Shown: piece by piece, positions 7,135 to 16,523 of the stretch
Position numbering within the stretch: the stretch's first letter is position 1
How the letters are laid out: each line of letters begins with the position of its first letter
Sequence record: SRR20825019_1337
Length of the DNA: 64,000 nt
Strand: one strand, 5' to 3'
Program-made: the position numbers and the translations under genes
Notes under the pieces: generated by a model
The model's database searches: none
Told to the model about the DNA's origin: nothing
What the model saw: the letters and a program-made list of their open reading frames with translations, nothing else

Positions 7135-9501
7135 CTAGTTCTTAATCAGTTTGATCATCGCAGAACGAACACCGTCAATTGAAACTTCTACGAAGTAATA
7201 ACCAGCGTTTCCGTTGATACTCATATCCGTTGAAGATACGCTATCATAAGAATAAGCAGAAATCTCACGTCCAAGACCATCTAAGATTCTGATCGCAACA
7301 TTCTCAAAAGTTCTTCCCAAGTTTACGTGAATGTCTCCAGAAGTTGGATTCGGTGAAACAACGATGTATTGATTCAACTCAAATTCATTGAGACTAACTG
7401 CATTCACAGCGTTACAAGCAGAAGTATCTGTACATCCGTTAAGGGTTACTTTTACTGCATAGTTTCCATTCACAGATGGAGCAAAAGATTGACCCGTTTC
7501 ACCAGCAATCGCTGAGTTTCCGTTATCACAATCCAACCATTGGTAAGTTGCACCAATAGCAGCTGAAGTCAACAAAGGATCATTGTTTGTTACGTTAATG
7601 TTGATAGCAACTACTGTAAGGTTAATTGTAATTGTGCTATCACATCCCGCTGCATTAGGAATAATGTCCGTGTACGTTCCAGAAGTAGACCATGTGTTGT
7701 TTCCACTTGGAGAAGTGTAGGTATCACAAGTACTTGGAGAGATTGTCGATGAAGTATTAATACATGGCATTGTAGAACATGCAATCATGTAATGTGCTCC
7801 AAGAGAATCAAACGTGTTTTGTGGCAAAGCAACCCATTCGCTTGCTGCAGTGGACCAATCCGTATTTCCTTGTTGAACTCCCATAGATCGAACAAGTGTG
7901 TATTCACTTGTAGCGCCTCCTGGAACAGCCCAGTTTACACCTGGATCAATTCCAATTTGTCCAATAATATCCAATGTATCTCCCGTGATAATGTTTTCCA
8001 ATGAAACAGCATCATCTCCGTTAAAGAACGTTGCTGGATTCAAAGTGTCTGAAACTGCAAGAATAAGTGGGTCTGCTTGATCGTTTCCAATCACGTAAAC
8101 GGCACCTGGTGCAAGAATTCCATTCATTGCGTATGTTCCAGAAGCAGTTGGACTTCCATTTGTGTGACGTTTAACAACGTAGTTAGAAAGGTCAACTGAA
8201 GAAAATGTTGGATTGTAAATTTCCAATGCTTTGTTGTTACTTGATCCTTCAAGATACTCTGAGAAGAAAATCGCTGAACATTGTCCTGCACATGCCGTAG
8301 GAGAATTAGGATCAAGTGTCACGTCGAATGTCATAATGCTATCACATCCTGCAGCGTTTAAAATAGTATCGTTGTAGATCCCAGAAGCTGTCCAAAGTAC
8401 TCCTGATGGAGATAAGTAGCTATTGCATCCAACTACGGTAAATGAACTTGTAGTAGGTGTATTGATTGTTAAATCTACTGTATAGATCGAATCACATCCT
8501 CCTGTTGTACTAAAAATAGTGTCATTATACATTCCTGTCGTTGTCCAAGTATATGTTCCGCTTGGTGAAACATAATCATCACATGAAGATGCAGAAATAG
8601 AGAAGAAAATACCTGTATTGATTGTTAAGTCAACGATAAACAATGAATCACATCCGCCTGTTGTACTGAAAATAGTATCGTTGTAGATTCCAGTTGCTGT
8701 CCATGTGTATGTTCCACTCGGAGAAGTGTAGCTCACACATGCTGAATCAGTAATGTTCGTAACAATTTCTGGAGCGATTGTCAAGTCAATCACATACATA
8801 CTATCACATCCGCCAGCATCAAAAATGGTATCGTTGTAGATTCCTGATGTTGTCCAAGTATATGTACCACTTGGTGAAGTATAACTATTACACTCTGAAA
8901 GCGTTAAGTTAAATGTAGTTGGAGTACAAGCTCCGCATGGAGTCATTGTATGTGTGCCTAGTGAGTCAAAGAAATTCTGTGGAAATACATCCCATTCACT
9001 AGCTCCGGTTGCCCAGTTCGTGCTTCCTTGCTGAATTCCAGCCATTCTTACTAAGGTATATTCGCTCGTTGCACCAGAACCTACAGGCCAGTTCGTTCCT
9101 GGGTCAAAACCAATTTGTCCAATAATATCTAGTGTGTCTCCAGTTGAATTCTTCACTAGATAAATCGCATCGTCACCGTTGAAATTTGCAACAGAACTAG
9201 TAACGTCAGAGAGTCCCAATACTGTAGCTGACGCAGCTGAGTTAGCAATCACGTATACATCACCAGGTGCAAGCATCATAGTTGGTACGTGCGATGAGTT
9301 TGGTGTTACGCCTCCATTTACATTTAGAAAAACTGTGTAACCAGACAAGTCGATTGTTGAACTTGTTGGATTGTAAATTTCTATCGCTTTATTATTGCCT
9401 GTTCCTTCAATGTATTCCGAAAAAAACAAATCACTACACTGAGCCATGCTCGTTCCAGTAATTAGTAAAGCAAAGCTTAATTTGAATAATTTTTTAATCA
9501 T
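7135..9501 (-). CDS. T9SS-secreted protein with two lamin-tail domains and Cys-bridged spacer repeats
   Basis: Two FFSEYxEGxxNNKAxEIYNPT...FNGDDA domains; five CxxYxSPSG..WT.SG.Y.DT..GCDS repeats; SPNPT...GYYFV...KLIKN CTD. Confidence 0.82.
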   Translation of the reverse strand: MIKKLFKLSFALLITGTSMAQCSDLFFSEYIEGTGNNKAIEIYNPTSSTIDLSGYTVFLNVNGGVTPNSSHVPTMMLAPGDVYVIANSAASATVLGLSDVTSSVANFNGDDAIYLVKNSTGDTLDIIGQIGFDPGTNWPVGSGATSEYTLVRMAGIQQGSTNWATGASEWDVFPQNFFDSLGTHTMTPCGACTPTTFNLTLSECNSYTSPSGTYTWTTSGIYNDTIFDAGGCDSMYVIDLTIAPEIVTNITDSACVSYTSPSGTYTWTATGIYNDTIFSTTGGCDSLFIVDLTINTGIFFSISASSCDDYVSPSGTYTWTTTGMYNDTIFSTTGGCDSIYTVDLTINTPTTSSFTVVGCNSYLSPSGVLWTASGIYNDTILNAAGCDSIMTFDVTLDPNSPTACAGQCSAIFFSEYLEGSSNNKALEIYNPTFSSVDLSNYVVKRHTNGSPTASGTYAMNGILAPGAVYVIGNDQADPLILAVSDTLNPATFFNGDDAVSLENIITGDTLDIIGQIGIDPGVNWAVPGGATSEYTLVRSMGVQQGNTDWSTAASEWVALPQNTFDSLGAHYMIACSTMPCINTSSTISPSTCDTYTSPSGNNTWSTSGTYTDIIPNAAGCDSTITINLTVVAININVTNNDPLLTSAAIGATYQWLDCDNGNSAIAGETGQSFAPSVNGNYAVKVTLNGCTDTSACNAVNAVSLNEFELNQYIVVSPNPTSGDIHVNLGRTFENVAIRILDGLGREISAYSYDSVSSTDMSINGNAGYYFVEVSIDGVRSAMIKLIKN

Positions 9502-9607: not shown

Positions 9608-10009
9608 TCAGTTATGAAAGGTTTTGAAAATAGCAATCAAACGATCTGGAGGGATTACTTTATTGGGGTAATTATGCATTTCTTCCAGAACGCGATTTGT
9701 TGCACTCGGATGAAGTCCCATTCGAATTCCAAGATTCTTAATATACTCCAATTCCGAATCATCTATTTCCAAATCTACATTCATTAATAAAATGAGTCGC
9801 TGAAATTGTACAATTCTATCAAATTCCAATTTAGGTGGATTGAAATCTATGTATTCTTCGAACAAACGCTTAAAATCATCCTTGGTAACTCCCATTTGAG
9901 CAGCAAGAGAGAGTAGAAATTGAAACTCTACATCCTTTATTTTCCCATCGGCCTTCGCCATTTGAATTAGTTGGGAAAGAATACTTTTTTTTTCGTTTTC
10001 GTCGCTCAT
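9608..10009 (-). CDS. TerB-family (tellurite resistance-like) protein
   Basis: MAKADGKIKDVE and LMNVDLEIDDSELEYI motifs; 4-bp overlap with upstream hydrolase. Confidence 0.75.
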   Translation of the reverse strand: MSDENEKKSILSQLIQMAKADGKIKDVEFQFLLSLAAQMGVTKDDFKRLFEEYIDFNPPKLEFDRIVQFQRLILLMNVDLEIDDSELEYIKNLGIRMGLHPSATNRVLEEMHNYPNKVIPPDRLIAIFKTFHN

Positions 10010-10836
10010 TTCGTCGTGATAAAAAAACGTAGAATTTGATCACACGCTTTTTCTAGTTCCAAAGGTAATGCTTTTTGATTCCATGGTTGATTCGCTCCAA
10101 AGGTATGTGTAGCGCCATCTAAAAGTATGTACTCACCCTTCGACCAATGAGCGATCCGTTGACCGTGTTCTGGAGGTGCTGAGCTATCCTCATCACCGTG
10201 AATTACTAAATAAGGAATGGTTGTTCCTTCGCAAGATTGTTGAATGTCTAATCGTTTTTTGTGTTGAAGAAAATCTTCGTACTGCGCGAAATAATGAGGC
10301 ATTTGCTGATGTGTTCTACCATTGAGACGATAATAAACACCATCAGTTTCCCATTTTTTGAAGTCATCTCCTTTGGGAAATCGATCAACTATAGACGAAA
10401 TAGGAGCAAGGAGTGCAATTTTGGAAATGCGGGAGTTCTTGCCTTGAAGCGCAGCAATTCCTCCTCCACGAGAGTGACCAATTAAATAAATCTCAAATGC
10501 ACCAAGATTCTGTGTGTCAACTTCATTGATGATTGCTGCTAAATCGTCTAGCTCTTTTGAATACGTGTTTTCTCCGAAAGATGCAAGATCACTGAAATCA
10601 ATGGGCTGATGAACGGTTCCTCCATTGTAACTAAAATTAAACTTTAGAAAACCGAAGTGTTCGCGAACGAAGAAGTCTTCCATTAAATTCCACGCTCCCC
10701 AATCTTTATATCCCATGTAACCATGTAGGAAAATGATGAGTTTGCGATTCCATTCTTTTGGAATGGTCAGGTCGTAGAGACTTTCTTTTCCTGTTGGATT
10801 GTTGAAGAGCGCATTTTTAAGTTCTTTTTCCTTCAT
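10006..10836 (-). CDS. Alpha/beta hydrolase
   Basis: HGYMGYKDWG oxyanion motif, GHSRGG nucleophile elbow, HGDED and HTFG catalytic Asp/His. Confidence 0.88.
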   Translation of the reverse strand: MKEKELKNALFNNPTGKESLYDLTIPKEWNRKLIIFLHGYMGYKDWGAWNLMEDFFVREHFGFLKFNFSYNGGTVHQPIDFSDLASFGENTYSKELDDLAAIINEVDTQNLGAFEIYLIGHSRGGGIAALQGKNSRISKIALLAPISSIVDRFPKGDDFKKWETDGVYYRLNGRTHQQMPHYFAQYEDFLQHKKRLDIQQSCEGTTIPYLVIHGDEDSSAPPEHGQRIAHWSKGEYILLDGATHTFGANQPWNQKALPLELEKACDQILRFFITTK

Positions 10837-10907: not shown

Positions 10908-11297
10908 ATGAAACGATTATTTTTTCTGCTTTTTGCGTGCACTTATTTGTCTTCTGCATGTTCTTCCGATTCGCGACATAAAGTGGTTGGAGACCATTTG
11001 ACAATTTATTTTGATAACTTGAAAGCGGAGAAACCTGCTGAGAAATTGGCAGTTTTTTGGAAGGAAAATAAATTTATTACTGGAAAAAAGCAAGACCTTA
11101 AATTAAACCTCGAAGGGAAAAATTTGATCATTTATATGATTTCGAATAATCCCAAAGAAGTGAAGGATATTTCCTTTGATGAACAAAAAATGCTGATGGA
11201 TCTAGAATATAAAATTCAATCGGAATTGTTTCCTAAGTATTCGGTCGATTTGGTAATTACGAATGATCAATTCGTCCCAATTTTAACTCTTGATTAA
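10908..11297 (+). CDS. Hypothetical lipoprotein
   Basis: MKR + hydrophobic stretch + SSAC lipobox; stop overlaps next start (TAATG). Confidence 0.7.
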   Translation: MKRLFFLLFACTYLSSACSSDSRHKVVGDHLTIYFDNLKAEKPAEKLAVFWKENKFITGKKQDLKLNLEGKNLIIYMISNNPKEVKDISFDEQKMLMDLEYKIQSELFPKYSVDLVITNDQFVPILTLD

Positions 11298-12301
11298 TGA
11301 AAATATCTGCATCCATTTATAGTGACAAAAAAAGAGAATTAGCTGAAGTTATTAAAGACTTAGCAGAACATCAGGTCGATCTTTTACACGTAGACTGTAA
11401 CGATGATCTATCAGTTTTTGACGATATCAAAGCGATAAGAACCATGTGTGATATCCCAATAGATTTGCACATTATTACAACAAAACCTTCAAAATATTAT
11501 CAACTCCTTCAAGAGAATCCTGTTGAATACATTACGTTTCAATATGAGGACTTGGAAGAGCCGCTAGTTATTCCTGCGGAGATAACAGGGAAGAAGGGCT
11601 TGGCTGTTATCACTCCAACTTCTGTAGATGTTTTTAACGAATATGCCGATTTTGATTTCATCTTAATTATGGCAACCATTCCAGGACAAAGTGGAGGGAA
11701 GTTTGATACGCTCAATTTTTCTAAAATTCGTCAATTCAGAAATTCATTCCCAGGGAAATCAATCCATGTGGATGGTGGAGTGAACGCTGAAGTTTCCTTT
11801 ATTCTGCGAAACATGGGAGTTACAAGCGCTGTCTCAGGCTCGTATCTCTTCAATGCTGCGAGCGTAGGAAATGCATTAATGAATTTAACCAAAAGAGAAG
11901 TGGAGTCCGAATTTTGTATCGCTGACTTCATGATTCCAATTACCGAGTGTCCAGTAGTGAAATTGGCAGACATTAGCTTTGAAAATGTGCTGAAATCGAT
12001 TGAAAACGGGAAGTTGGGATTCACTATTATAACGGATGATTCAGGTAGTTTGAAAGGATTAATTTCGAACGCTGACGTACGAAAGGGACTTTTGAAAAAC
12101 CTCTCTGCGTTAGATCAATTAAATGTGAATGAGTTAATTAACGAAAATCCAACGACTATTGAAGGAAGTTCGACCGTACTCGCAATGTTGCAACTGATTA
12201 AAAAGAGCAATTTTCCATTAACTTATCTTCCTGTCATTAACAGCCAAGGAAGTGCGCTCGGAATTGTTACTTTTGTGAACCTTATCAAAGGAGAATTATG
12301 A
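11297..12301 (+). CDS. Ribulose-phosphate 3-epimerase-like barrel fused to C-terminal CBS pair
   Basis: LHVD, IDLH, LIMATIPGQSG, VDGGVN, AVSGS RPE motifs in the first approx. 195 aa; IADFMIP...GLISNADVRK...NENPTTI...LPVIN..LGIVT CBS tandem. Confidence 0.82.
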   Translation: MKISASIYSDKKRELAEVIKDLAEHQVDLLHVDCNDDLSVFDDIKAIRTMCDIPIDLHIITTKPSKYYQLLQENPVEYITFQYEDLEEPLVIPAEITGKKGLAVITPTSVDVFNEYADFDFILIMATIPGQSGGKFDTLNFSKIRQFRNSFPGKSIHVDGGVNAEVSFILRNMGVTSAVSGSYLFNAASVGNALMNLTKREVESEFCIADFMIPITECPVVKLADISFENVLKSIENGKLGFTIITDDSGSLKGLISNADVRKGLLKNLSALDQLNVNELINENPTTIEGSSTVLAMLQLIKKSNFPLTYLPVINSQGSALGIVTFVNLIKGEL

Positions 12302-13296
12302 TATTACACTTAAGATCAACTGTAAGCGATCAACGTGCCGCGCAAGTAGCACAAGAAATGAACGCTTTTCATATAAAGGACGGCTCACAACATGTCCTAA
12401 TTACTGAAGCATCGGTAAAGAATGTGCCCAATACGCTCGAAAGTGAAGTAGAGGAGTTTTGGGTGTTTGATAATGATATCCAATTAGCATCAAAAAAATA
12501 CCGCAGCGATAAGCGCTCTGTGAAAATTGGTGGTATTGAAGTTGGAGGATCAACACATTCTACGGTGCTAATTGGTGGACCTTGTTCTGTGGAATCAGAG
12601 GAACAAATTCGTTCGTCTGCCGAGTTAATAAAGTCAATGGGATTGACAACTCTTCGTGGAGGTTGTTATAAGCCAAGAACAAGTCCGTATTCTTTTCAAG
12701 GAATGGGATTGGAAGGCTTGAAATTACTAGCCAAAATGCGCGAAGAATACGGTTTAAACGTAATTACTGAAGCGAGAGACGCAACGCACATCGACGAGAT
12801 TATTGAGTATTCTGATGTCATCCAAGTTGGAGCAAAAGCAATGTACGATCAAGGAATCTTGAGAGCATGTGCAAAAACACAGAAGCCTGTTTTAATCAAG
12901 CGTGGTTTTGGAACAACGCTAAAGGAATTTGTTCAGGCGGCTGAATTTGTATTGTCTGGAGGAAACTCTAACGTGCTTTTGTGCGAACGAGGATTGAGAA
13001 CTTTTGAAACGAATACACGATTCACACTTGATTTATGTGGTGTTGCTTGGTTGCAAGAACATGTGAACTTACCAATCATCCTTGACCCAAGTCACGCGAT
13101 GGGATATGCTTACGGAGTTCCTTCTTTAGCAAAAGCATGTGTTGCAATGGGAATTGATGGTTTGCTCATAGAAGCACATCCAAATCCTAAAGTAGCGAAG
13201 TCGGATGCCTCACAACAGCTTAATTACGACGAGTTCCGTCAATTGTATAACGATATTAAGCCAGTTGCAGAAGCTGTTGGTTATCATATAATTTAA
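12298..13296 (+). CDS. Type I-beta DAHP synthase / KdsA-family aldolase with N-terminal ACT/ferredoxin-like extension
   Basis: GPCSVES, KPRTSPYSFQG, LCERG, DPSH, EAHPNP..AKSDASQQL; ATGA overlap with upstream gene. Confidence 0.88.
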   Translation: MILHLRSTVSDQRAAQVAQEMNAFHIKDGSQHVLITEASVKNVPNTLESEVEEFWVFDNDIQLASKKYRSDKRSVKIGGIEVGGSTHSTVLIGGPCSVESEEQIRSSAELIKSMGLTTLRGGCYKPRTSPYSFQGMGLEGLKLLAKMREEYGLNVITEARDATHIDEIIEYSDVIQVGAKAMYDQGILRACAKTQKPVLIKRGFGTTLKEFVQAAEFVLSGGNSNVLLCERGLRTFETNTRFTLDLCGVAWLQEHVNLPIILDPSHAMGYAYGVPSLAKACVAMGIDGLLIEAHPNPKVAKSDASQQLNYDEFRQLYNDIKPVAEAVGYHII

Positions 13297-13299
13297 AGA

Positions 13300-13980
13300 A
13301 TGTTTCTTGAACAAAACATAAAGGGAATTTGTGAGAAGTTCGGACTAGATTTTGACGAATTTCTAGATGAATTAGACGCTGAAAATGTCAAAGAACTCAC
13401 ACTTTTTGATTTAGAAGCTATTGCAGAAGAATACGAAGTTGACTTACATGCGCTGATTTTCAAAGCGTGCTTTAATGTTTCTGCACTCAGAGAGAAATTG
13501 GATCAAGTGAAGTTACTTGTGCTCGATGTAGACGGTGTAATGACCGACGGAGGAATGTATTTTACAGAAAGCGGTGACCAGTTCAAAAAGTTCAACACGA
13601 AAGATGGAATGGCAATTATTCACTTAACGAAAAGCGATTTTCAAGTGGCGATTATCTCTTCCGGATTTCGAGGTGAAGCGGTAAAAGCAAGAGCAGAGTT
13701 ACTAGGAATTCAGTATTGTCACGTTTCCCGTGAACCCAAATTAAAAATTCTAAATGAAATTTGTACCGAGCTAAATATTAGCTTGTCGCAAGTCGCAATA
13801 GTCGGAGATGACATCAATGACCAAGAAGTAATGAGAAATGTAGGTGTATCTTTTTGTCCGTCAGACGCTGTAGACACCGTAAAGGAATTAGTTGATGTTG
13901 TGCTTTCGAAAAAAGGTGGGCAAGGATGTGTTCGCGAATTAATCGATCAGTACATTTTAAAACAACCATTGAGTAAATAA
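13300..13980 (+). CDS. KdsC/YrbI-family HAD phosphatase with approx. 65-aa N-terminal extension
   Basis: LDVDGVMTDG, KKFNTKDG, VGDDINDQ, GGQGCVRELID. Confidence 0.88.
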   Translation: MFLEQNIKGICEKFGLDFDEFLDELDAENVKELTLFDLEAIAEEYEVDLHALIFKACFNVSALREKLDQVKLLVLDVDGVMTDGGMYFTESGDQFKKFNTKDGMAIIHLTKSDFQVAIISSGFRGEAVKARAELLGIQYCHVSREPKLKILNEICTELNISLSQVAIVGDDINDQEVMRNVGVSFCPSDAVDTVKELVDVVLSKKGGQGCVRELIDQYILKQPLSK

Positions 13981-13983
13981 CGA

Positions 13984-15204
13984 ATGGAGAAAATTATAAT
14001 TGGGGTAGTTAGAGAAGGAAAAGTCCCACCGGATAAAAGAGTCCCTCTAACACCAAAGCAATGTATCGCACTAATGTCTGTTTATTCGCACGTTGAAGTG
14101 ATCGTTCAACCGAGCCCAATAAGAGCTTATAAAGACCAAGCTTATTTGGATCTAGGCATCAAGATGAAAGAAGATCTTTCAGAATGTGATATTCTGATTG
14201 GCGTGAAAGAAGTAAATAAGGAAGATTTAATTCCAAACAAAAAATACCTGTTCTTTTCGCACACTTTTAAAAAGCAGCCATACAATCGGGAGCTTCTTCA
14301 AGAAATCTTAAAAAAGAAGGTTCAACTCATCGATTACGAAGTTCTTAAAAATAAAGAGGGTAAAAGACTCATTGGTTTTGGAAGATACGCTGGAATTGTA
14401 GGGACTTATAATGCGTTTTTAACGTATGGTTTGAAGCATGATTTGTACGCTATTAAAGCAGCGAATGAATGCCGCGATCGTAAAGAAGTGGAGGACGAGC
14501 TAAAAAAGACCGTTCTTCCAAGCAATATGAAAATAGTGCTCACTGGTTTCGGAAGAGTTGGACATGGTGCAAGAGAAGTGCTTGATTTACTTCCGATTAA
14601 AGAGGTTTCTCCAGAGGAATTTTTATCTGAGGAATTTGATTCGCCAGTGTATACTCAACTCGAAGTAGAGGACTATTATGGACGAAAAGATGGAAAACCA
14701 TTTGAGAAATCAGTTTTTTATAAAAACCCTGAGTTGTTCAAATCAACTTTTTCAAAGTATTTGAGCGTTTCGGATATGTACATTCCTTGTCATTATTGGA
14801 GTGATAAATCGGATTTCATAATTACGCGTGAAGATCTCAAAAAAGAGAATGTAAGATTGTCTGTTGTAGCGGACATTAGTTGCGATATTGATGGTCCAAT
14901 TGCAAGTACAATTCGACCAAGTAAAATTGCAGATCCTATTTATGGATATGATCCAATTACCGAATCTGAAGTTGATTTTAAGCAAGAAAACGCAATTGCA
15001 GTAATGGCTGTAGATAATCTACCATGCGAATTGCCGTTAGATGCGTCTGAAGATTTTGGAAACGAATTGATTAAAGAAATATTTCCTGCGCTACTATCCG
15101 AAGACAAGGATAATGTAATTGCGAGAGGATCGGAGACTACTTTAGATGGTCAGTTAACTGAACAATTCAGTTATCTTAGTGACTATCTTGCTGGAAAAGA
15201 ATGA
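13984..15204 (+). CDS. Alanine dehydrogenase/PNT-fold NAD(P)-dependent oxidoreductase (saccharopine dehydrogenase / lysine-ketoglutarate reductase-like)
   Basis: REGK.PPDKRVPLTP, GVKEV, FFSHTFKKQPYN, GFGRYAG, DISCDIDGP, AVDNLPCELP. Confidence 0.85.
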   Translation: MEKIIIGVVREGKVPPDKRVPLTPKQCIALMSVYSHVEVIVQPSPIRAYKDQAYLDLGIKMKEDLSECDILIGVKEVNKEDLIPNKKYLFFSHTFKKQPYNRELLQEILKKKVQLIDYEVLKNKEGKRLIGFGRYAGIVGTYNAFLTYGLKHDLYAIKAANECRDRKEVEDELKKTVLPSNMKIVLTGFGRVGHGAREVLDLLPIKEVSPEEFLSEEFDSPVYTQLEVEDYYGRKDGKPFEKSVFYKNPELFKSTFSKYLSVSDMYIPCHYWSDKSDFIITREDLKKENVRLSVVADISCDIDGPIASTIRPSKIADPIYGYDPITESEVDFKQENAIAVMAVDNLPCELPLDASEDFGNELIKEIFPALLSEDKDNVIARGSETTLDGQLTEQFSYLSDYLAGKE

Positions 15205-16523
15205 TTGAAAAAGGAAATAAAAAGCTGATTCGCGGATGGGTGATGTACGACTGGGCAAACTCAGTGTACAACCTCGTAATTTCGTCTGCAATCTTCCCAA
15301 TATTTTATACGAATATAACGCATGATTTATATGTAGAACGTCTGGCAAAAGCTGGATTGGTCTATAAAGAGGGAAGTCCCGTAATGGTAGATTTCTTCGG
15401 TGCTGACATAGAAAGTCAAGTGCTTATTTCTTATGTGTTGAGTGCTTCTTTTTTGGTAGTTTCTTTTCTTTCCCCGTTGCTCTCTGGAGTAGCTGATTTT
15501 ATTGGAAACAAAAAGCGTTTCATGCAATTCTTTTGCTATTTGGGAGCATTTGCGTGTATGGGATTGTATTTCTTCAAAGCAAATGTTGAACTGGGATTAT
15601 TGTCTGTTTTCCTTGCTAGCATTGGATTCTGGAATAGTTTGGTGTTTTATAATGCGTATTTACCCGAAATAGCAGAACCAAAAGACCATGATAGAATTTC
15701 CGCTCGTGGATTTTCTATGGGATACATAGGAAGCATGGTTTTACTTGTGATTTGTTTGGCAATGATCATGCTAATAGATACTTCTTATACGAAGTATAGC
15801 TTCATTCTCGTTGGGCTCTGGTGGATTGGTTTTAGTCAAATTACTTACCGCGTTCTTCCCAATAATGTCTACAACAAGACCCGCGAAAAGGGATATGTTT
15901 GGAAAGGCTTTCGCGAATTACTGATTGTGTTTAAACAGTTTAGAAAAACGGTTCGTTTAAAGCGTTATTTAGCATCTTTTTTCTTCTTCAATACAGGTGT
16001 TCAAACGGTTATGCTTATGGCGGTGTACTTCGCAAAGAAGGAAGTTAACTGGGGCGAAGGTGGAGGAGACACTGGGCTTATTATTTCTATTTTATTGATT
16101 CAAATTTTAGGAGCTGTCGGCGCGTTTAGTATGTCAAGACTTTCGGGAAAAATAGGAAACATCCACACTTTGATGATCACAGTAACGATTTGGGTTGGTT
16201 TGTGCGTTTGTGCTTTCTTTATTTCAACTCCCGTTCAGTTTTACTTCCTGGCGTGTGGTGTTGGACTCGTAATGGGTGGAGTACAAGCAATTGCACGCTC
16301 AACGTACTCTAAATTCTTACCTGAAACAGAAGATCACGCTTCGTATTTCTCTTTCTACGATGTAACGGAGAAAATCGGAATCGTTCTTGGCACTTTCTTC
16401 TATGGATTAATGTACTCGCTTACAGGAGATTTACGAATGTCTGTCCTTTCCATTGCGTTCTTCTTTTGTGTTGGGTTGATTCTACTCTTCTTTGTACCAA
16501 AGGAAGAACGAGTAATAACTTAA
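15201..16523 (+). CDS. MFS transporter, UMF1/Atg22-like family
   Basis: WVMYDWANS, YNAYLPEIA...DRISARG; about 12 hydrophobic segments. Confidence 0.88.
   Translation: MIEKGNKKLIRGWVMYDWANSVYNLVISSAIFPIFYTNITHDLYVERLAKAGLVYKEGSPVMVDFFGADIESQVLISYVLSASFLVVSFLSPLLSGVADFIGNKKRFMQFFCYLGAFACMGLYFFKANVELGLLSVFLASIGFWNSLVFYNAYLPEIAEPKDHDRISARGFSMGYIGSMVLLVICLAMIMLIDTSYTKYSFILVGLWWIGFSQITYRVLPNNVYNKTREKGYVWKGFRELLIVFKQFRKTVRLKRYLASFFFFNTGVQTVMLMAVYFAKKEVNWGEGGGDTGLIISILLIQILGAVGAFSMSRLSGKIGNIHTLMITVTIWVGLCVCAFFISTPVQFYFLACGVGLVMGGVQAIARSTYSKFLPETEDHASYFSFYDVTEKIGIVLGTFFYGLMYSLTGDLRMSVLSIAFFFCVGLILLFFVPKEERVIT

Follow-up and report, generated by a model that had tools for sequence, protein, structure and literature searches.

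The locus and its conserved core

Six tightly packed genes occupy positions 10908 to 16523 of the window, by which we mean the whole 64-kb stretch of DNA that was analysed:

10908-11297, + strand: lipoprotein-like ORF of 129 aa with a signal-peptide/Cys; peripheral, outside the conserved core
11297-12301, + strand: fusion of an RPE-like barrel (aa 1-~198) with a KdsD-like CBS pair (aa ~205-334), 334 aa
12298-13296, + strand: type I-beta DAHP-synthase-like protein, N-terminal ferredoxin-like domain (aa 1-~62) plus TIM barrel, 332 aa
13300-13980, + strand: KdsC-family HAD phosphatase, core at aa ~70-226 after an N-terminal extension of ~70 aa, 226 aa
13984-15204, + strand: lysine-ketoglutarate reductase / saccharopine dehydrogenase-like; conserved neighbour, not core
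15201-16523, + strand: Atg22-like MFS transporter; neighbour, not core

The sequence-only reading had described 10908-13980 as an operon of four genes, and the ORFs lie at exactly these coordinates, all on the + strand. As read from the sequence, the lipoprotein-like and RPE-CBS genes overlap by 1 nt (TAATG), the RPE-CBS and DAHPS-like genes overlap by 4 nt (ATGA), and 3 nt separate the DAHPS-like gene from the KdsC-like gene. The packing of this interval is as described, but the run is longer: it continues past 13980 with a 3-nt gap to the gene at 13984-15204 and an ATGA overlap to the one at 15201-16523. The former scores 68.5 bits on AlaDh_PNT_N and has the LKR domain of human AASS (3.5e-42) and yeast saccharopine dehydrogenase as its best solved relatives, and the latter matches PF11700 at 257 bits. 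These two neighbours are found in 74/80 and 64/80 related loci, respectively, and in 0/8 loci of a second Bacteroidota order, where the related loci are the best 80 of 307 relatives, compared by tblastn with the window proteins. At the other end of the run, the lipoprotein had been counted as an operon member; its ORF and its TAATG overlap are real, but it does not belong to the conserved core, as this ORF, for which we found no Pfam or NCBIfam family, is matched by blastp in 41 of 82 loci and is absent from L115 and from all eight second-order loci.

What is conserved is the trio of RPE-CBS fusion, DAHPS-like synthase and KdsC-like phosphatase, which is contiguous in 76 of the 80 related loci, an arrangement that goes beyond chance. 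By tblastn, the DAHPS-like gene adjoins the fusion in 78 of them and the KdsC-like gene does so in 76; among the loci with a missing match, L017 and L034 stop before the DAHPS-like and KdsC-like genes and L042 and L060 inside the DAHPS-like gene. The order of the trio is identical in all eight loci fetched from the second order, at 40-51% identity, and across the two orders the trio is kept as a unit at 40-76% identity. The expectation that the three genes would be conserved together across genomes is upheld in both sets of loci, and a literature search found no description of the trio. In G414 and G398, the trio is flanked by sucD and unassigned ORFs, among others; the other six second-order loci were compared with the window's six proteins only. 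The observation that neither aro genes nor a CMP-transferase lie nearby also stands: relatives' KdsB, AroA, TrpE, DAHPS-CM and second KdsC (G001) and KdsD (G248), used as tblastn queries, gave no further match in the window.

The three core proteins

The barrel of the fusion protein is recognised by the RPE fold model PF00834 (Ribul_P_3_epim; 82.7 bits over aa 2-185, cut-off 21.1) and is followed by the CBS pair, and the top Foldseek matches of the AF2 model (pLDDT 91.5) are RPEs. The His-Asp-His-Asp metal and acid-base set of RPE is present as H31, D33, H58 and D159, and these residues, together with S6, are invariant in 81/81 orthologues and in 18 diverse members. With Rpe and AlsE (D-allulose-6-phosphate 3-epimerase), the fusion shares the fold (Foldseek TM 0.74-0.81 to targets) and this catalytic set; unlike them, it has a shorter loop after the HxD motif, Ile in place of Met at H+2 (I60 in 81/81), PGxSGG in place of PGfgGQ and a C-terminal CBS pair, identity being ~25%. 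On the rpe equivalog TIGR01163 it scores 81.9 bits, where 212.6 are required, and it co-exists with a normal Rpe, which is present in 5/5 relatives' genomes at 251-265 bits on PF00834.

The CBS half of the fusion points to KdsD. Its best NCBIfam match is kpsF, it is best matched both by sequence and by Foldseek by 4O9K, which is the CBS pair from a putative A5P isomerase, and the family profile of the fusion matches a confirmed KdsD at 98.7 bits. The CBS pair can be assigned to the KdsD C-terminal type with the caveat that ORFs of ~500 aa score higher on the CBS half of the kpsF model (44.6-50.5 bits vs 26.7-42.5 bits for the fusion, in five relatives' genomes), so that its affinity to KdsD is one-directional. 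The match to the kpsF/KdsD model TIGR00393 covers only model positions 164-267, i.e. the CBS half (36.3 bits, cut-off 203.7), and a Pfam search of the fusion found no SIS domain, the catalytic domain of KdsD. We propose that the fusion may be an arabinose-5-phosphate-forming enzyme, a functional stand-in for KdsD. To our knowledge, enzymes of the RPE family are known only as ketose-phosphate 3-epimerases, and A5P formation would be without precedent among them.

Could the three genes be ordinary enzymes that lie side by side, namely a second, feedback-regulated DAHPS isozyme serving aromatic amino acids, a CBS-regulated Rpe isozyme and a KdsC, with Kdo-8-P coming from an unrecognised enzyme or Kdo being salvaged? 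Database models and source names do label them so, and multiple DAHPS isozymes are common; however, the fusion falls far short of the rpe equivalog cut-off, relatives carry a normal Rpe besides, and the CBS pair of the fusion is KdsD-like.

The second protein scores as a DAHP synthase. It matches PF00793 (DAHP_synth_1) at 223 bits and exceeds the cut-offs of the type I-beta DAHPS models NF006421 (364.7 vs 335 bits, matched over its full length) and TIGR01361 (318.9 vs 267.75 bits), whereas on the KDO8P_synth model for KdsA, TIGR01362, it reaches 130.1 bits of the 314 required. KPRTS stands at aa 125-129 in 79/79 orthologues, with no insertion resembling the KANRS motif of KdsA, and C96, R120, K201, R231, R234, H266, E292 and D303 are kept along with KPRTS125-129 in the same 79/79; the metal ligands C96/H266/E292/D303 together with KPR(T/S) are those of a type I-beta DAHPS. 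The barrel is ~60% similar to the DAHPS of A. pernix (1VS1) and P. furiosus (1ZCO), with which it shares the metal ligands and KPRTS. The P. furiosus enzyme is said to have been reported by Schofield et al. in 2005 to accept five-carbon aldose phosphates.

The synthase nevertheless differs from type I-beta enzymes, both the T. maritima type (1RZM/3PG9) and the archaeal unregulated ones (1ZCO, 1VS1), in two motifs: GARN.QNF is replaced by GAKAMYDQ and H(P/G)xGRR by HAMGYA, changes that are fixed or nearly so in the 79 sequences. The arginine of the GAR motif, which is Arg in 43/43 trp-linked FL-DAHPS and also in DAHPS-CM and the archaeal enzymes of solved structure, is K180 in 79/79. PMC6362186 describes this G(A/S)R arginine as a completely conserved PEP-binding site of DAHPS. 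Fixed differences from the 43 trp-linked FL-DAHPS occur at 180-187, 242-251, 267 and 271, and the fixed changes, that of the arginine included, lie in active-site loops. In a tree rooted with KdsA, the synthase groups with the DAHPS enzymes as a clade of its own (23/23 rows, support 0.88). Trio-bearing genomes contain hardly any other KdsA-like gene, and none that scores better. The synthase differs further from known type I-beta enzymes in occurring only where KdsA was not found, and none of the examined loci links it to aro or trp genes. We propose it as a putative Kdo-8-phosphate synthase, a stand-in for KdsA. Its ferredoxin-like domain architecture also occurs in trp-linked DAHP synthases, which favours an ordinary DAHPS isozyme, but the separate clade with a changed, otherwise invariant PEP-site arginine and a gene order kept at 40% identity across orders, never with aro genes in the loci examined, argue the other way.

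Two features of the synthase count against a role in Kdo synthesis, namely the KPRTS motif, which is of the E4P type and present throughout the family, and its filing as a DAHP synthase by the NCBIfam model whose cut-off it passes. Both favour an alternative that we regard as unlikely overall, in which the trio makes a different 3-deoxy-ulosonic acid that replaces Kdo in the envelope or decorates another glycan; candidates are free 3-deoxy-D-arabino-heptulosonate, derived from E4P, and an epimeric octulosonate derived from ribose-5-P or a different pentose-5-P. With E4P as the aldose, however, it is hard to see what the epimerase would do.

The phosphatase, after its N-terminal extension of ~70 aa, belongs to the KdsC subfamily (TIGR01670, 147.3 bits, cut-off 106.95). 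No Pfam family matches this extension, and the phosphatases of the second order lack it. D76 and D78 (the HAD DxD nucleophile), S120, G169-D170 and N173 are present in 77/77 sequences, and the clade is separate from the ancestral Flavobacteriales KdsC with support of 100/100. We propose it as the putative Kdo-8-phosphate phosphatase of the module. The KDN-9-P phosphatase model NF058599 (152.2 bits, cut-off 180) scores slightly above the KdsC equivalog NF007019 (134.4 bits, cut-off 208), both below their cut-offs, which favours a different ulosonic acid. So does the possession of a phosphatase of its own, apart from the ancestral KdsC, an orthologue of which is still encoded as a second KdsC in 14 of 20 trio-bearing genomes: there the module phosphatase would be redundant if the product were Kdo-8-P, a possible hint that its substrate is another one. 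The remaining 6/20 genomes have no KdsC-family gene besides that of the module, which favours the Kdo route.

Kdo and aromatic pathways in trio-bearing genomes

Which other genes of these pathways accompany the trio? Gene content was read from whole genomes of relatives, not from that of the window's own organism, and the detailed set comprises five relatives' genomes, two of which bear chromosome-assembly titles. KDO8P_synth is above its cut-off in 0/5, the best match being the cluster gene, and kpsF/KdsD is above its cut-off in 0/5; KdsD was not found in G414 and G398 either. The answer to the question of whether canonical kdsA and kdsD exist elsewhere is that they were found in no trio-bearing genome searched. 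The five genomes encode, as PF00793 genes, only the cluster gene and one other, and a true NeuB-type synthase occurs in two of them. The aromatic function is covered by separate DAHP synthases: in G001 the second PF00793 gene encodes a DAHPS-chorismate mutase adjoining aroA and trpEGD, and FL-DAHPS genes linked to the trp operon occur in G414, G398 and G137. Nor are the trio's enzymes the only copies, which was part of the refuting case set by the sequence-only reading: an extra Rpe and an extra PF00793 gene are present in every detailed genome and a second KdsC in most of the 20.

The absence of KdsA and KdsD extends to a pattern of mutual exclusion. Among 201 genomes from the order of G001, 60 have the RPE-CBS fusion, 137 have KdsA (at least 300 bits), none has both and four have neither; KdsD in either form is present in 127/201 and in none of the 60 with the fusion. 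The order of G414 gives 14 genomes with the fusion, 125 with KdsA, none with both and 12 with neither out of 151; at least eight of those 12 measure 0.9-1.6 Mb. This complementarity comes from few clades (at least two orders and three sequence groups), so these counts are not independent observations and reflect few independent events. If the three were ordinary enzymes, the exclusion of KdsA over 352 sampled genomes, and that of KdsD, would be coincidence, and we consider that explanation very improbable.

The later steps of the pathway are retained. WaaA is present in 5/5 detailed genomes and in 19/20 trio-bearing genomes, and the KdsB equivalog is above its cut-off in 19/20, the twentieth being cut by a contig end. 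KdsB scores span 207-245 bits in trio-bearing genomes and 209-239 bits in five KdsA-bearing genomes, i.e. the same range. That KdsB and WaaA scores are indistinguishable from those of KdsA-bearing relatives, with the ancestral KdsC mostly kept, speaks against a different ulosonic acid, as the three kept genes are hard to explain without Kdo-8-P and no other source of Kdo-8-P was found; nor is the trio accompanied in the window by a dedicated cytidylyltransferase or glycosyltransferase. On an Elusimicrobiota contig, too, the RPE-CBS/DAHPS-like pair is present, inside a nucleotide-sugar cluster, where genes for a different ulosonic acid would be expected as well. Gene content, synteny, phyletic complementarity, retained catalytic residues and paralogue relationships were all observed directly.

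A proposed replacement route to Kdo

The proposal that epimerisation, PEP condensation and dephosphorylation yield an ulosonic acid gains support from the conservation of the trio, the extra copies and the loss of kdsA and kdsD, and each check that could be run by computation agreed with it. It had left the product as either Kdo, reached by a non-orthologous route, or another free ulosonic acid; the first of these is favoured, since kdsA and kdsD are not found while kdsB and waaA are kept. We hypothesize, with a probability of roughly 65%, that in lineages without KdsD and KdsA the trio is a non-orthologous replacement of the steps that open Kdo synthesis. Our case for Kdo is entirely one of comparative genomics, from which we infer substrates, products, the reaction of step 1 and regulation through the CBS and ferredoxin-like domains.

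In this replacement route, the RPE-fold enzyme would form D-arabinose-5-phosphate from a sugar of the pentose phosphate pathway by way of an enediolate stabilised by the metal. For an RPE active site, C2 epimerisation of ribose-5-P would be the most parsimonious step to assume, the alternative being isomerisation of Ru5P to A5P; the KdsD-type CBS pair would retain the regulatory input of KdsD. The metal-dependent DAHPS-like enzyme would then condense PEP and A5P to Kdo-8-phosphate, the KdsC-like phosphatase would release Kdo, and canonical KdsB and WaaA, encoded elsewhere, would activate this sugar and attach it to lipid A. We know of no described enzyme for the direct C2 epimerisation of ribose-5-phosphate to A5P. 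A more specific version is tentative, and we would sooner bet against it: the RPE-fold enzyme may be a direct R5P C2-epimerase with the KdsD CBS pair as a sensor of the end product, CMP-Kdo, the KPRTS synthase may be the true Kdo-8-phosphate synthase of whole Bacteroidota families and some other phyla, and a single mobile module of three genes may have displaced both committed enzymes at once.

LPS is generally held to need Kdo as an essential, near-universal component, and textbooks give KdsA and KdsD as its committed enzymes, which are also drug targets. If the replacement route is real, automatic annotation is wrong in hundreds of species, where a "3-deoxy-7-phosphoheptulonate synthase" and a "ribulose-phosphate 3-epimerase" are neither, and metabolic reconstructions would falsely show a broken LPS pathway and an extra entry point to the shikimate pathway. 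It would also provide a natural experiment on the specificity of DAHPS versus KDO8PS without the KANRS motif, and the RPE scaffold may harbour a new reaction that is yet to be characterised. Three recombinant proteins and the E. coli mutants already available would allow a direct test of the hypothesis.

The trio repeats the logic of the canonical CMP-Kdo pathway (KdsD (KpsF/GutQ)-KdsA-KdsC-KdsB) gene for gene, with a CBS-pair sugar-phosphate enzyme, a PEP-using aldolase from the superfamily of DAHPS and KDO8PS, and a HAD phosphatase of the KdsC family, and with KdsB and WaaA kept in the same genomes. It differs at each of its steps: an RPE-fold barrel takes the place of the SIS domain, the synthase comes from the I-beta DAHPS branch (KPRTS, Cys-His-Glu-Asp ligands, ferredoxin-like domain) and not from KdsA, and the phosphatase clade lies apart from the lineage's own KdsC. 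Bacteroidota already vary the architecture of KdsD. For example, a SIS-only form of ~200 aa is encoded in 59 of the 201 Flavobacteriales genomes sampled; it adjoins kdsA where coordinates were compared (e.g. G070 and G081), and we take it to be the single-SIS-domain arabinose-5-phosphate isomerase of the Bacteroides fragilis type. That enzyme keeps the SIS domain and drops the CBS pair, whereas the fusion keeps the CBS pair and swaps the catalytic domain.

Architecture and conservation of the locus

ORF calling returned the four genes of 10908-13980 exactly where the sequence-only reading had placed them, and the TAATG overlap, ATGA overlap and 3-nt gap that it described can be read directly off the sequence. 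The tight packing runs on past 13980 for two more genes.

Genes of the tightly packed run
10908-11297 (+), lipoprotein-like ORF; no family (Pfam, NCBIfam)
11297-12301 (+), RPE-CBS fusion; Ribul_P_3_epim at 82.7 bits, then a CBS pair (Pfam, NCBIfam)
12298-13296 (+), DAHPS-like synthase; DAHP_synth_1, and full-length NF006421 at 364.7 against a cut-off of 335
13300-13980 (+), KdsC-subfamily HAD phosphatase; 147.3 bits against 106.95, with a ~70-residue extension in front
13984-15204 (+), LKR/saccharopine-dehydrogenase-like gene; 3-nt gap after the phosphatase
15201-16523 (+), Atg22-like MFS transporter; ATGA overlap with the LKR-like gene

Against the NCBIfam equivalog models, the fusion scores 81.9 bits for rpe (cut-off 212.6) and the synthase 130.1 bits for KDO8P_synth (314 required). 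The synthase carries KPRTS, and its N-terminal ferredoxin-like domain is covered by the full-length NF006421 match. The N-terminal extension of the phosphatase matches no Pfam family at the cut-off (best, YqzH, 17.2 bits against 30), and among solved proteins the LKR-like gene is closest to human AASS, in its LKR domain (3.5e-42). Promoter-like sites number 17 against 16.6 expected, using a scan model without Bacteroidota promoters, and terminator-like sites 4 against 4.4 expected; neither count is informative. Upstream of the fusion-synthase-phosphatase trio, the stretches 7135-9501 (-) and 9608-10836 (-) contain a 788-aa secreted repeat protein with internal duplications, whose C-terminus, judged by sequence, appears to resemble a T9SS sorting domain, and a TerB-like gene and an alpha/beta hydrolase that keep this upstream position at many related loci (tblastn).

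The expectation that the trio would be conserved as a neighborhood was borne out. Species-representative genomes scanned with the fusion protein gave 307 relatives, and the best 80 loci, at 65-76% identity and nearly all from Crocinitomicaceae, Fluviicola or Flavobacteriales MAGs, were searched by tblastn with the window proteins. The DAHPS-like gene lies directly downstream of the fusion in 78/80 loci, the KdsC-like gene is found in 76/80, the LKR-like gene in 74/80 and the MFS gene in 64/80; among the loci without a match, the sequence stops ahead of these genes in L017 and L034 and inside the DAHPS-like gene in L042 and L060. Fusion, synthase and phosphatase have the same arrangement in 8/8 loci fetched from a second order (the order of genome G414), with fusion identities of 40-51% and a phosphatase that lacks the N-terminal extension. 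With the window proteins as queries, the lipoprotein, LKR and MFS genes were absent beside the trio in all eight, and we therefore rejected the LKR-like gene and the transporter as core pathway members; they may be a lysine-catabolism/export pair on a transcript shared with the trio. The trp-linked DAHPS of G414 is 77-80% identical to proteins of Marinoscillum, Fulvivirga and Cyclobacteriaceae, which makes this genome Cytophagales-like.

The architecture reaches further still. An all-against-library search (E <= 1e-30) gave 108 representative clusters, which include some Chitinophagales and one Elusimicrobiota; the most distant full-length members have 25-30% identity. A phylum-wide search with profile A1 (E <= 1e-25) returned mostly canonical Rpe, with a full-length fusion in 4/401 genomes, and yielded G398 and G414. 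A metagenome scan with alignment A3 confirmed no member; one with the single protein P0207 gave one informative locus and a second, L116, that matches the RPE part only. The informative locus (L115:1-10442, an Elusimicrobiota MAG contig) has a DAHP_synth_1 gene 24 nt after the fusion, and because the contig end cuts this synthase, a phosphatase cannot be seen. The pair stands last in a series of genes on one strand, nucleotide-sugar genes among them: UbiA-like, NAD-epimerase/dehydratase, NTP-transferase, GDP-mannose-dehydratase-like, DegT aminotransferase, metallo-beta-lactamase-fold and RraA-like aldolase genes. Synteny thus defines the trio as the core, and the fusion-synthase pair as the part with the widest range.

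Kdo genes in trio-bearing genomes

Statements at genome level describe relatives reached through their loci rather than the window's own genome. In five relatives, two of them titled chromosome assemblies, each genome has exactly two PF00793 genes, one of them the cluster gene. The sequence-only reading had proposed Kdo synthesis by a non-orthologous route, or synthesis of a different free ulosonic acid, and the gene content agrees with such a proposal: canonical kdsA and kdsD were not found in any of the five (0/5 at the cut-off for KDO8P_synth, with the cluster gene as top match, and 0/5 for kpsF/KdsD), and a separate aro-linked DAHP synthase does exist, the second PF00793 gene of G001 being a DAHPS that carries a chorismate mutase at its C-terminus, adjoins aroA and is divergent from trpE, trpG and trpD. 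All five carry a normal Rpe (251-265 bits), WaaA and a strong KdsB-like gene. We rejected the possibility that a NeuB-type synthase stands in for KdsA; no more than 2/5 genomes have a true NeuB, too few for a general substitute. One locus of G001 (L084, G001:C1:2336992-2340710) has a true NeuB-type synthase (332 bits) with, close by, a CBS-containing ORF and a second CTP_transf_3 gene (68.5 bits); it looks like a separate sialic/nonulosonic-acid cluster of this one relative.

The same holds in 20 trio-bearing genomes picked to span diversity. KdsB exceeds its equivalog cut-off in 19/20, the 20th being cut by a contig end, and its scores (207-245 bits) are on a level with those of five KdsA-bearing genomes (209-239 bits); WaaA is found in 19/20. 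A short second KdsC, the ancestral KdsC, is retained in 14/20, and the module's phosphatase is the sole copy in 6/20. Neither KdsA nor KdsD was found in G414, G398, G014 or G018. Across the two orders, fusion and canonical KdsA exclude each other, as tabulated here with the proviso that the trio-bearing genomes fall into a few clades, and that the counts do not stand for independent events.

Occurrence of the RPE-CBS fusion and canonical KdsA in two orders
Order of G001 (Flavobacteriales): 201 genomes; RPE-CBS 60; KdsA 137 (134 over the cut-off and 3 just under it, at 302-311 bits); both 0; neither 4
Order of G414: 151 genomes; RPE-CBS 14; KdsA 125 (E <= 1e-60); both 0; neither 12

KdsD in either form is present in 127/201 genomes of the first order (68 over the cut-off and 59 SIS-only, of ~200 aa) and in none of the 60 with the fusion. 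The SIS-only proteins (e.g. G070:C112:47704-48165) have no CBS pair and adjoin kdsA where coordinates were compared (G070, G081). Two orders and three sequence groups show the exclusion pattern. Were the three proteins ordinary isozymes, this mutual exclusion with KdsA and KdsD would be a coincidence, and we regard that explanation as very improbable.

Among the 12 genomes of the second order with neither gene, the eight listed measure 0.9-1.6 Mb. The trio is carried by eight genomes of 1.5-1.7 Mb in that sample, and the module therefore persists in strongly reduced genomes. One of the four Flavobacteriales genomes with neither, G137, has a cluster-type (trio-like) synthase with K180-type residues at a contig start (L096:187-1876, G137:C177), and in place of the KdsC-like gene a 210-aa ORF follows that matches neither NCBIfam nor Pfam. 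No RPE-CBS match was found in G137, and a kpsF fragment lies on a different contig; this genome may have a variant arrangement or else be a mixed bin.

Paralogues, active sites and proposed chemistry

In a KdsC-family tree (44 rows, IQ-TREE), the short second KdsC found in genomes with the trio groups with the KdsC of KdsA-bearing Flavobacteriales (100/100), and the module phosphatase forms a clade apart from it. The ancestral-type short KdsC gene of G001 (L082:3218-4514) shares 14 nt with a DUF2520/Rossmann-like gene. In a DAHPS/KdsA tree (45 rows, FastTree, KdsA root), the cluster-type synthases form one clade (23/23 rows, support 0.88, stem 0.59), separate both from trp-linked FL-DAHPS (G414, G398, G137) and from DAHPS-chorismate mutase.

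Invariant in 79/79 cluster-type synthases are the metal ligands C96, H266, E292 and D303, together with R120, KPRTS, K201, R231 and R234. The arginine of G(A/S)R, which PMC6362186 describes as a completely conserved PEP-binding site, is Lys in all 79. Positions 181-187, 242-251, 267 and 271 are fixed differences from 43 trp-linked FL-DAHPS, and against the solved archaeal enzymes the differences lie at 180-185 and 270-271. In KdsA, the loops that would be equivalent (beta4-alpha4 and beta7-alpha7) bind A5P.

From comparative genomics, we read the trio as a probable non-orthologous Kdo-8-P/Kdo module, with a probability of roughly 0.65. This reading follows from three considerations: the users of Kdo-8-P (ancestral KdsC, KdsB, WaaA) are kept and its two makers are not found; the fusion and synthase are the sole candidates with suitable chemistry; and these two travel with a KdsC-like phosphatase, with a KdsD-type regulatory domain on the fusion. 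That the trio makes a different ulosonate, as the retained KPRTS, the phosphatase's own clade and the glycan-cluster context of the Elusimicrobiota pair might suggest, seems to us unlikely. No description of the module was found in a search of literature listings and abstracts; what is new here is the genome-level absence of KdsA and KdsD with KdsB, WaaA and ancestral KdsC kept.

For the first step of the putative Kdo module, we favor epimerization of ribose-5-phosphate at C2 by the fusion to give A5P. An RPE active site takes a proton off the carbon beside a metal-bound carbonyl and puts it back on the opposite face; with an aldose-5-phosphate shifted by one carbon in the site, in the manner of allulose-6-phosphate 3-epimerase, the same chemistry would interconvert R5P and A5P. 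The fusion could alternatively be a Ru5P-to-A5P isomerase. Its S6, H31, D33, H58 and D159 are invariant in 81 proteins, and likewise in 18 members whose identity falls as low as 25%. With its confident AF2 model (pLDDT 91.5) as query, Foldseek ranks RPEs first, and the C-terminal half is matched best, by Foldseek and by sequence alike, by 4O9K, a CBS pair belonging to a putative A5P isomerase. The fusion-family profile matches a confirmed KdsD at 98.7 bits, with the caveat that the kpsF model scores ~500-aa ORFs of these genomes somewhat above the fusion, on the CBS half. Compared with solved RPEs, the fusion has a shorter loop after HxD, and an Ile at H+2 where RPEs have Met.
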